Of a DNA stretch of 64,000 nt, positions 16,418-19,035 are shown piece after piece. The stretch lies in NCBI GenBank assembly GCA_026026165.1, contig JAPEUD010000017.1, positions 248,001-312,000 of the forward strand. The letters are read 5' to 3'. Numbering within the stretch: the stretch's first letter is position 1; each line of letters begins with the position of its first letter. This DNA comes from Sarea resinae. Its lineage: Eukaryota. Both the position numbers and the translations under genes were made by a program. The notes under the pieces are model-generated. The model had not been told where the DNA came from. It saw only the letters and a program-made list of their open reading frames with translations, and made no database searches.

Positions 16418-17508
16418 TCAGACCTCCATAGTCCCGGCGGGCTCCTCGTCGCCAGACTCAAAACTGCCCACAGAGCTCATCTCGTCATCGGATTCGCTGT
16501 CCTCGCCTGCTTCGTCTGCCGCGTCTTTGGTGGCGTATTTCGACACGTACTCTATGCATTGTGAGTTTGCATCGAGGACGTGATATGTCTGGGGATTCGT
16601 ACCTTTCACCTTCGCCTCATACGTCTTGGGCTCCCTCATCATTAAGGCGGCCGCCTCTCCGTTCAGCGGGTCGGTGGGGTTCGGATATCGGAGCAGTTGG
16701 GGCAGGAAGACTTCGAAGATGTTGATCATGTCGAACATGGGCGACCATGTTTGATTTATGACGTCGAGACAAACGGAGCCCGACCTATATGAACGAGTCA
16801 GGACATGTCAATGGCTGTACCAATAGGTATAAAGGGAAGTGGCGCACAACTCATCAATATTAGGGTGGAATATCCGGTTGACAAAGCCGATGCTCGGGCT
16901 CTTGTAGGGATACTGGTCCGGTAGCTCGACGTGCACTTTCCAGAGACCACCGGCGAAAGGTGCTGATGAGGAAGTACAAGAGTCAGCGATGTATTCCTAG
17001 AAAGCGCGCATTGCGGGTTTTTCTTACTCTCTTCTGGCCCCTTGAAACGGACATAGAATTCCTGCCTGAAAACCCAGATATGTGAGCTTTATGCCGTCGA
17101 TTTATGGACGGATGGTACTAGAAAGACGGCACGAACACTGCCCATGACTCCGTTAGTATTGAACGGACCATGCGCCCACATGCATATTGTCTCGACCGGT
17201 AGGAGAGTCCACACGTACTGTTATCGTTCACCAAGGTGACTTCGTAATCGCTCATGAGCCTTGTTCTCGTTAGTCCTTGAAGCCAGATCAGGCGAGCGGG
17301 AGCTCGCAGATCGGACGACAGCAAGCATACATTCTGCACATAGTCAGCTCTCCTCACGTTGGCAGGGAATGAATCCTACTCACTTCATGACCTATACAAT
17401 CAGAGACGCATTCGTAGTTAGCCTGCAAGCTCTCCGCATCCCGGGATGTCCTTGAAGCTCGCCATCATGACTCACATCCGTCTCGATTCTTCTCTTTGGG
17501 CTGCTCAT
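16418..17508 (-). CDS. UBC8: Ubiquitin-conjugating enzyme E2 Ubc8/UBE2H; 9 exons including 8-, 3- and 1-nt microexons
   Basis: Spliced product [98 protein letters not shown]... with an acidic tail. Exons: 17508-17476, 17391-17384, 17333-17331, 17259-17219, 17137, 17065-17028, 16962-16848, 16784-16603, 16551-16418. Confidence 0.95.
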
Positions 17509-17564: not shown

Positions 17565-17610
17565 CAGGTCCCGAGGGTCTCATTCAGGTCCCGAGGGTCT
17601 CATTCAGGTC
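17565..17610. repeat. 20-nt tandem duplication (CAGGTCCCGAGGGTCTCATT x2 plus partial) upstream of UBC8
   Basis: Direct reading of the sequence. Confidence 0.85.
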
Positions 17611-17889
17611 CATTCAAACCTGTAGAGATTGGAGGCGTATTGGCGCTGCGTTGCGGGGTGATCGGCGTGGTCGAGCTTATGGTTGTGGCGGGGTAGGGCA
17701 GTGGAGCATTCGCATGCGGGCTACAGAGACGTTCGAGAGCAAGAGGATATTGCTCCTCGGCGAGAATGAGAATGAGAATGAGAATGAGTGGATAGCTGCT
17801 GTTTGCGGCGATGAGCTGGCAGAGTTGAGGTGGTCAGTCGATGTGCGAGGTCGTGGTTAAATAATGACGCACGTGGAGTCGATACCTAA

Positions 17890-17914
17890 GGTAGGTAGGT
17901 AGGTAGGTAGGTAG
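17890..17914. repeat. (GGTA)n microsatellite
   Basis: gtaggtaggtaggtaggtaggtagg. Confidence 0.9.
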
Positions 17915-19035
17915 GCAAGGTAAGGTAAGCAACGGTGGTTGCGTCTTCACGGCCTGCAAAGTACAGCTCGCGGGCGGGTTGTCCTGATCGGGATAGATGG
18001 GATTGATTACACGCAGCAAAGACACGAACGAGGGAGTGGTGGTAGGTGGTGGTAGGTGGCGGTACTATCAAATGGTATACGGAGGAGATCTGTATGGATC
18101 TGTATGAATCCGATATATTACGGCTCAGGTGCCAGCTGCCAGGTGCCAGGTGCACGTCGCGATGGCATCAAACCTTGGAAGAGATCAAGATCTCCACTGT
18201 CTGGGCGTCGTCACGTGGCCAGCTCCACAGATGACTCTTATCCTGCAGATTATTAAGCATACCATTCTCTTCTGCTGATGCGCTTCGAATTGTTCCCGTC
18301 ACGACGCCGAAGCTGAAGCGGAAGCTGAAGCTGAAGCAGCTCGAGGAGAGGCCTGGAGAGCCGGTGCCTGATCCGGCTTGGGGAGCGACGGAGTACTGCG
18401 TTGCCTGGGATAGCAGGTGACCACTCATACTATGTACATAGTAGTACGAGTACACACCGCGCAGTAGTATCATAGTACTATACTCCGTACATAGTAGTAC
18501 GCAGTACGACGTAGGAGTACTCGTTCTTCAGGTGACGCTAGTCCGCAGTGGGCAGGCCCCTCGAGCCTCGGTCGGAGGGGCCCTGGCGCCCTTCAGCTGG
18601 ATTGGATGCGTTCCGTTGGGGAGAGAGACACAGAGGGACGAAGCGTGAGGTGCTTCGAGATACCCGAGTCGGCCGTCATGGTACCTCTCTCGTCGGCGCC
18701 CTACCTATTGGCTCCCAGGTACCTGCCCCGTTCGTCTTACGTACTCGCTGACTACCTGCATACCTTGTACCATATACTATGCATACCATTTAGGCCTCCG
18801 TAACGGCCGTGCACGACATACTGCGTACGGCAACCATCCCAGATAGCCCATCCTCATGGAAGGGACACCGCCTACGCGGCAGTATTCATCACGACAATTA
18901 CTCAGATAAAAAGTCATCTCGCCGCCCGTTCGCAATGCCTTTATCTCTCTTCGTCTATCATTCTCCAGGCACGCGAGGGGTCCGGCTTTCCCATTTTTCG
19001 ATTCCGCGACTCTTTTTTCCCACAACCAAACCCTC

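Follow-up and report, generated by a model that had tools for sequence, protein, structure and literature searches.

Introduction

In the literature searched, two single-nucleotide exons have been published from nuclear genes, one in APC11 of Arabidopsis (PMC4674806) and one in CYP621A of Fusarium (PMC12940212), and the authors of the latter study present their exon as the second example ever and the first from a fungus (Nelson and Syed 2026, PMC12940212). A full-text search of the literature returned no microexon in UBC8/E2-H genes and no further single-nucleotide exon in a nuclear gene. Here we analyse a stretch of 64,000 nucleotides from Sarea resinae (assembly GCA_026026165.1, contig JAPEUD010000017.1, positions 248,001 to 312,000 of the forward strand; hereafter the window, numbered from its first letter), in which the UBC8 gene, encoded on the minus strand, very probably contains an exon consisting of a single T at position 17137.

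The exon of Arabidopsis thaliana APC11 (Guo and Liu 2015, PMC4674806) resembles the one proposed here in being constitutive, in lying between two complete GT..AG introns, in being required for the reading frame and in having been mis-annotated in public databases. Its authors likewise argue for intron definition combined with a recursive-like, sequential removal of the two introns (PMC4674806). The two cases differ in that APC11 is a plant gene of another kind and was studied by reverse transcription PCR and green fluorescent protein reporters (PMC4674806), whereas the UBC8 exon is fungal, has been recognized by comparison, is kept across deeply diverged loci and stands beside a three-nucleotide exon.

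CYP621A offers a fungal parallel, namely, a G in the context AG-G-GT, found in P450 genes of approximately 20 Fusarium species and likewise located within a conserved motif (PMC12940212). It was recognized by the same signs as the exon in UBC8: a mismatch of intron phase, conservation of AG-N-GT among orthologues, and a span about twice the usual intron length; nearly all public models of the gene are wrong (PMC12940212). Unlike the UBC8 exon, it is described from one genus and from a rarely expressed gene of secondary metabolism, its base is a G, and it has been confirmed with SRA reads (PMC12940212). In UBC8, by contrast, the base is a T, the gene is a housekeeping E2 gene, and the loci sharing the exon resemble several classes of Pezizomycotina.

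Two other arrangements are also comparable. Stwintrons share with the UBC8 arrangement two introns within one short span, consecutive splicing reactions and occurrence in genes of Pezizomycotina (PMC5639578, PMC9024468). However, in a stwintron the internal intron interrupts the donor, the branch site or the acceptor of the external one and no exon base lies between the two (PMC5639578, PMC9024468), whereas both UBC8 introns are complete before splicing and are separated by a coding base. The preliminary description of this locus had likened it to stwintrons; since neither intron interrupts a splice signal of the other, the likeness fails at the defining feature. At recursive ratchet points (AG/GT, i.e. 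a zero-length exon; slashes mark splice junctions here and in the split codons below), as in UBC8, an acceptor sits next to a donor, removal is stepwise and the second reaction takes place close to the junction (PMC4674806). Ratchet points are described as leaving nothing in the mRNA and as belonging to very long introns (PMC4674806), whereas UBC8 would keep one base between introns of 71-81 nt. Thus, exon 5 of UBC8 would work like a recursive splice site that retains one base.

Gene structure and the predicted single-nucleotide exon

Judged by its sequence, the gene belongs to a Pezizomycotina fungus and encodes a ubiquitin-conjugating enzyme of the UBC8/E2-H (UBE2H) type. The coding region extends from 17508 to 16418 on the minus strand and consists of nine exons and eight introns. 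The conceptual product of the nine-exon model, with exons 3 and 5 included, has 184 amino acids and matches the homologues P0062, P0064 and P0115 at 168, 167 and 164 of the 184 positions, respectively; P0062 stands for 239 clustered sequences from short, intron-free contigs, the longest of 928 nt. Matches to the Pfam family UQ_con (PF00179) were found in exon 7 (E-value = 1.9e-12) and exon 8 (E-value = 2.2e-14), which encode the core features of the UBC fold, the HPN motif (FHPNID) and the catalytic Cys in SGSVCLDVI, respectively. Exon 8 retrieved 4871 homologues in a search, the best homologues of the gene are named by their sources 'Ubiquitin-conjugating enzyme E2 8' or 'E2 H', and the acidic C-terminal tail is 98-100% identical to models that carry their names from the respective sources. 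The gene sequence in the window equals that of the public gene model P0006, which is named for a Sarea resinae assembly.

All eight introns begin with GT, have G at position +5 and end with AG, and their lengths, from intron 1 to intron 8, are 84, 50, 71, 81, 71, 65, 63 and 51 nt. Between them lies a run of five microexons, with exons 2-6 measuring 8, 3, 41, 1 and 38 nt. Exon 4 (17219..17259, 41 nt) ends with ...GATAACA and contributes the A of a Met codon; the alignment of an RNA contig from a relative stops at precisely its last base, 17219. Intron 4 (17138..17218, 81 nt, GTACGT..ACTAAC..GGCAG) has its branch A 15 nt ahead of the 3′ splice site and is followed by the single T at 17137, directly after which intron 5 begins (17066..17136, 71 nt, GTTCGT..GCTCAC..TTCAG, branch motif 17 nt from the 3′ end). 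Exon 6 (17028..17065, 38 nt) starts with GCAGGAATTC, its first base being the G of the Met codon and its last base the first of a Thr codon, as placed by the gene reconstruction. Thus, introns 4 and 5, delimited by splice signals and by comparison with relatives, each possess their own GT donor, branch motif and AG acceptor, and both fall within the size range of the other six introns of the gene (50-84 nt). The branch motif of the CTCAC type seen in intron 5 also occurs in intron 8, the splicing of which is documented by an RNA contig. The coordinates and splice signals given in the preliminary description (17218-17138, T at 17137, 17136-17066) proved exact when re-read from the minus strand.

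With the T included, the gene reads NDN-M-QEF and the Met codon, A/T/G, is drawn from three exons. Removal of the entire 153-nt span, T and all, shifts the frame and produces 60 out-of-frame codons followed by a stop in exon 8, so that the earlier statement that whole-span removal destroys the frame is borne out. The frame by itself places no demand on the identity of the base, as any nucleotide at 17137 would preserve it, yielding ATG, AAG, ACG or AGG. In the alignment of ten full-length homologues, Met29, Gln30, Glu31 and Phe32 are invariant in all ten, which agrees with the Ubc8 MQEF motif of yeast named in the preliminary description. The base is T in all seven sequences with two introns at this site (the window and the six loci described below), at a position where the Met of the family is invariant, as expected for a translated base.

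The arrangement is unlikely to be a chance product of the local sequence composition. AG-N-GTNNG preceded by a branch-like motif at a distance of 6-28 nt was found 14 times when both strands of the window (128,000 nt) were scanned, which corresponds to 0.017 expected occurrences per 153 nt. When the span was shuffled 20,000 times, AG-T-GTNNG reappeared together with two branch-like motifs, and with both pieces measuring 45 nt or more, in only 15 cases. RNA editing, ribosomal frameshifting and a pseudogene were considered as other explanations of the phase problem and were rejected, because complete and conserved splice signals account for the phase and all exons are intact. We consider it very likely that T 17137 is a constitutive single-nucleotide exon that contributes the second base of the conserved Met codon in NDN-M-QEF.

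Conservation of the split codon in related loci

To compare loci, the ten aligned full-length homologues were used to scan metagenome contigs, which gave 537 confirmed matches, and the best 80 were examined as individual loci. In 34 of the 80, the spacing between the DN and QEF codons is exactly ATG, i.e. the codon is uninterrupted. Six loci (L030, L033, L045, L058, L059 and L068) display the pattern A/GT..AG/T/GT..AG/G, and one (L049) has a single intron, A/GT..AG/TG. The remaining 39 lie outside the DN/QEF motif pair and are mostly more distant sequences. The proposal that the Met codon is assembled as A/T/G through a one-base exon is therefore strongly backed by T in six of six related two-intron loci and by ATG in all uninterrupted relatives, and the alignment of UBC8 loci that had been suggested as a check returned AG-T-GT in each of the six.

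In the seven two-intron sequences the first intron measures 48-81 nt and the second 55-73 nt, and a branch-like motif precedes each acceptor by 7-18 nt; both the lengths and the sequences of the introns differ among the loci. By their sequences, the six loci come from different, independent organisms, and one of them encodes the MSEF variant of Pezizomycetes-like sequences. Compared by blastn with the other 72 loci, all of which lack the split, the exons of the two-intron sequences share approximately 80-86% DNA identity. Other introns of the gene are variable, intron 7 being absent from L030, L058 and L059, and intron 8 from L030 and L033. The low exon identity, together with the variability of the other introns, indicates that the split has been maintained across deep divergence. 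Moreover, as introns 7 and 8 are absent from some of the loci that keep both microexons, the introns flanking the microexons have outlasted ordinary introns of the same gene. Assigning the six loci to taxa by their nearest named proteins gave no firm placement, as the protein is too conserved, and such placements are hints only.

We also considered whether introns 4 and 5 are tandem copies of a single ancestral intron. When the two were aligned locally within each of the seven loci, no similarity above that of shuffled sequences emerged (33 to 287 of 300 shuffles scored equally or higher), and this origin thus finds no support in the within-locus alignments, although the event may be too old to have left a trace.

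Public gene models at the split codon

To assess how the codon is treated in public databases, 196 homologues were retrieved and classified by their reading around VNDN. The N-terminal part is absent from 95 of them, 34 read D(N/S)-M-(Q/S)EF, 19 lack VNDN but keep EF(Y/F)V, and 48 go astray directly past VNDN. All but one of the latter (47 of 48) are named NCBI models, by name from species of Pezizomycotina, including members of the genera Pseudogymnoascus, Lachnellula, Rutstroemia, Hymenoscyphus, Pyricularia, Aureobasidium, Venturia, Tuber, Terfezia and Geoglossum as well as several lichen fungi.

The errors fall into recurrent types. Two models join the A directly to the G, leaving exon 6 frameshifted, and five (P0006, P0026, P0080, P0089 and P0143) jump to exon 7 and read DN-TPF. 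Twelve read DN-M-(Y/F) and then run on, as results when intron 4 is spliced to the AG-T junction and the donor that follows (GTAT.. or GTTC..) is translated. Five others (P0050, P0069, P0155, P0161 and P0166) read DN-SM-, DN-SE- or DN-SK-QEF; their additional residues correspond to an exon extended by four bases from the start of a GTATGT, GTGAGT or GTAAGT donor, with the GT at positions +5/+6 used as the donor. The DN-SX-QEF models represent a recurrent work-around of gene predictors for the missing base, and the errors as a whole match those expected from a single-nucleotide exon that was not modelled. A direct contrast is provided by P0103, assembled from short contigs, which reads DN-M-SEF, vs the genome model P0108, which reads DN-R-SEF and is 97.6% identical to it; in a blastp comparison of the 34 intact with the 48 garbled proteins this was the sole close pair.

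The Sarea resinae model, P0006, is itself among the models that go astray. In exons 8 and 9 its identity to the window is 100%, but it starts inside exon 2, omits exon 3, the T and exon 6, and retains intron 8, the in-frame read-through of which adds 17 residues. Because an RNA contig skips 16552-16602, at least the intron 8 part of P0006 is in error. When the species-specific tail was used as a query, no Sarea resinae protein was recovered beyond this public genome model.

Transcript evidence and alternative explanations

Part of the stretch was found in one RNA run, a metatranscriptome (0.21 share of words), the contigs of which were compared at 90% likeness. One contig of 549 nt, with 2 differing letters in 362 aligned, skips exactly 16552-16602, i.e. 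intron 8, and covers exons 8-9 only. Another, of 268 nt and derived from a relative (4 differing letters in 53), joins exon 8 to exon 4 in its alignment, with the joint at 16765>17219.

Several points weigh against the inclusion of T 17137. The contigs of the RNA run stem from relatives and do not cover 16806-17218, so that no Sarea resinae read spans 17219/17137/17065, and the 268-nt contig of the relative, whose middle letters are not displayed, has a length compatible both with and without the T. No transcript and genome pair from the same species emerged when the eight intron-bearing sequences were compared with the 72 other loci by blastn (best approximately 86% over long matches), and consequently the observation that the mRNA reads ATG is joined to the observation that the genome has the split across species only. 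Furthermore, the short intron-free contigs are taken to be RNA-derived because of their length and uninterrupted frames. Finally, the window itself permits a single-intron solution. Directly observed are the structure of the locus, the dependence of the reading frame on the T and the persistence of the split in relatives; the inclusion of the T in the Sarea resinae mRNA is an inference.

The single-intron solution would be an intron of 149 nt with the donor GTGTGG at 17214 and the acceptor at 17066, giving DN-S-T-QEF, a product one residue longer, with no Met and no single-nucleotide exon. This shifted donor restores the frame without a stop and has G at +5; a corresponding lengthening of the exon by 4 nt can be constructed in six of the seven loci, and the same manoeuvre accounts for the public models reading DN-SM-, DN-SE- and DN-SK-QEF. 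However, a GT at +5/+6 is merely part of the donor consensus GTNNGT, the shifted donors elsewhere (GTACCA, GTCTCC, GTCAAT, GTACCG and GTCTAC) lack the G at +5, and in L030 there is no solution at all. None of the 34 uninterrupted loci has 6 nt at the site, all of them reading ATG, nor does any of the 34 intact proteins contain S-X. The shifted donor would also leave unexplained why AG-T-GT and the branch motifs of each of the two introns are conserved in all seven sequences, and its intron would be twice the size of the others in the gene. The end of the relative's RNA contig alignment at 17219 rather than at 17215 points in the same direction, albeit weakly. Taken together, we regard the 149-nt intron as very unlikely. 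Even less credible is the structure of the public model, in which exon 4 is joined to exon 7 (DN-TPF), the T and exon 6 are skipped and 13 residues of the UBC fold are lost. Although this joining is in frame and is used by P0006 as well as by P0026, P0080, P0089 and P0143, the deleted residues hold seven columns invariant in the ten homologues (M29, Q30, E31, F32, V34, F36 and G38), exon 6 is an intact and conserved coding block with good flanking splice sites, the block is missing from none of the 30 uninterrupted relatives, and P0006 is unreliable, as it also retains intron 8, the splicing of which is seen in RNA. We therefore consider it extremely improbable that the public model is right.

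A different question is whether a real single-nucleotide exon might act as a regulated switch, with skipping leading to a frameshift and nonsense-mediated decay (NMD) that tunes the level of Ubc8, as had been suggested from the initial inspection of the sequence. The skipped form would encounter its stop after 60 out-of-frame codons, at a point within exon 8 that precedes the final exon junction, and would thus be a plausible NMD substrate; in addition, 33% of transcripts lacked an artificial single-nucleotide exon in an experiment on potato invertase (cited in PMC4674806). Among the contigs of relatives the T-less form is absent (none of the 34 uninterrupted loci), which is a weak argument, since assembled contigs drop rare isoforms, and no conserved RNA structure or regulatory element was detected around the exon (z-score −0.45). 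Hence the switch lacks support and appears unlikely, and constitutive inclusion of the T remains the favoured reading.

Possible order of splicing

Introns of 50-80 nt in fungi are usually recognized by intron definition. Each intron flanking T 17137 would accordingly be an ordinary short U2-type fungal intron that is recognized on its own. Only one base separates the acceptor of intron 4 from the donor of intron 5, so the U1/U5 contacts of one site would cover the other. The U1/U6/U5 contacts at the donor of intron 5 (−3 to +6) would extend over the AG that ends intron 4, and the acceptor of intron 4 would have to dock at the position of the intron 5 donor. These overlapping contacts suggest that the two introns are removed sequentially, as in recursive splicing. 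Whichever intron is removed first, the other would keep all of its signals, and no special machinery should therefore be needed in either order. The proposal of ordered splicing by intron definition was already contained in the preliminary description and is a reasonable one, of the kind made for Arabidopsis APC11 (PMC4674806).

If intron 4 is removed first, the exon side of the intron 5 donor would become CAT instead of AGT, slightly nearer to the usual (A/C)AG. We tentatively lean towards intron 4 going first, since it is transcribed first and its removal would slightly improve the donor context. In the case of the 9-nt exon of potato invertase, the downstream intron is removed first (cited in PMC4674806). 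RNA structure that would bring the splice sites together was also considered and rejected: the minimum free energy around the exon (−56.6) is close to the mean of shuffled sequences (−54.7; z-score −0.45), and neither a conserved structure nor another regulatory element was found there.

The three-nucleotide exon and the remaining parts of the gene

A second extreme microexon is predicted 194 nt upstream of T 17137. Exon 3 (17331..17333, 3 nt, AAT), in the context TGCAG/AAT/GTATGC, completes a Lys codon (AA+A) and provides the first two bases of the next Met codon (VMK-M-L). The arrangement AG/NNN/GT is present in all six sequences that cover the site, with AAT in the window, GAT in L030, L033, L059 and L068, and GCT in L058; the sequence of L045 is cut off before reaching the site. 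The variation is of a coding type, as AA+A and AA+G both encode Lys, while AT+G and CT+G encode Met and Leu, producing K-M or K-L, and both VMKML and VMKLL are found in relatives. The codon is present in all 30 loci uninterrupted from RIETD to SPSIGF. Skipping of exon 3 stays in frame and is assumed by several public models (VMK-LMSDYEV). The preliminary description, very likely right on the single-nucleotide exon, had overlooked exon 3 as well as the frame-restoring donor GTGTGG and the faulty public model. A 3-bp exon that is likewise in frame has been described in Drosophila homothorax, where it is an alternative, regulated cassette (PMC7392893), whereas exon 3 of UBC8 appears to be constitutive.

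Some loci have only one of the introns that delimit a microexon. At the exon 3 site, the downstream intron stands alone in L049, L020, L036 and L037, and at the Met29 site L049 has the upstream intron only. In L049 (approximately 2518-2700 in locus coordinates) there is one intron per microexon site, which splits the first Met codon as AT/G and the second as A/TG. Such one-intron states may be intermediates in the build-up of the microexons or secondary intron losses, as the series is unrooted.

As for the remaining parts, all on the minus strand, exon 1 (17476..17508, 33 nt) begins with ATG and fits the N-terminus of the homologues. Intron 1 (17392..17475, 84 nt, GTGAGT..GCTAAC..TATAG) has a counterpart at the same place in L030, L058, L059, L068 and L042. 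Exon 2 (17384..17391, 8 nt, GTCATGAA) encodes V, M and two bases of the K codon; in L030, L058, L059 and L068 the identical octamer lies between splice sites, and in L033, which is devoid of intron 1, it directly follows the RIETD codons. Intron 2 (17334..17383, 50 nt, GTGAGT..GCTGAC..TGCAG) is placed by its splice signals and by comparison with relatives, and intron 3 (17260..17330, 71 nt, GTATGC..ACTAAC..ACAAG) corresponds to the sole intron at the exon 3 site in the four loci mentioned above. Downstream of exon 6, intron 6 (16963..17027, 65 nt, GTAAGA..GCTGAC..ATCAG) has a counterpart in the same interval in most genomic relatives. It is followed by exon 7 with the HPN motif (16848..16962, 115 nt), intron 7 (16785..16847, 63 nt, GTGCGC..CTGAC..ATATAG), exon 8 with the catalytic Cys (16603..16784, 182 nt) and intron 8 (16552..16602, 51 nt, GTACGA..ACTCAC..CATAG), whose removal is seen in the RNA contig. 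According to the gene reconstruction, the coding part of exon 9 (16418..16551) encodes the acidic tail and ends with the stop codon at 16420-16418.

Upstream of the gene, a perfect tandem duplication of 20 nt (2.3 copies, 100% matches) occupies 17565-17611, approximately 60-100 nt before the UBC8 start codon, and likely belongs to the 5′ untranslated region or the promoter. Farther upstream, the intergenic region contains short microsatellites, perfect or near-perfect, namely, (GAGAAT) x4.5 at 17762-17788, (AGGT) x6.8 at 17889-17915 and (GAAGCT) x4.8 at 18309-18337.

Implications

The UBC8 exon would be a further case of a very small known kind and, as judged from the loci compared here, is probably its most widely conserved member. 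We go further with some caution and favour, on balance, the view that, among known single-nucleotide exons, the one of Pezizomycotina UBC8 is both the most ancient and the most widely distributed, being constitutive, accompanied by a three-nucleotide exon and older than the divergence of the classes of filamentous ascomycetes. If true, it would be the third single-nucleotide exon, shared by loci that resemble several fungal classes, adjoined by an exon of 3 nt and located in a gene of essential type with high expression and strong conservation.

For annotation, at least 48 of the 196 homologues misread this codon. Almost all of the faulty entries are named public models, that of Sarea resinae itself among them, and the UBC8 codon would be a benchmark that most fungal annotations fail. 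The locus is also a test bed for the order of splicing, as many of the affected species are cultured and transformable. If the proposed structure is correct, the spliceosome of these fungi would handle the extreme of a one-nucleotide exon routinely, and would have done so stably over long evolutionary times.

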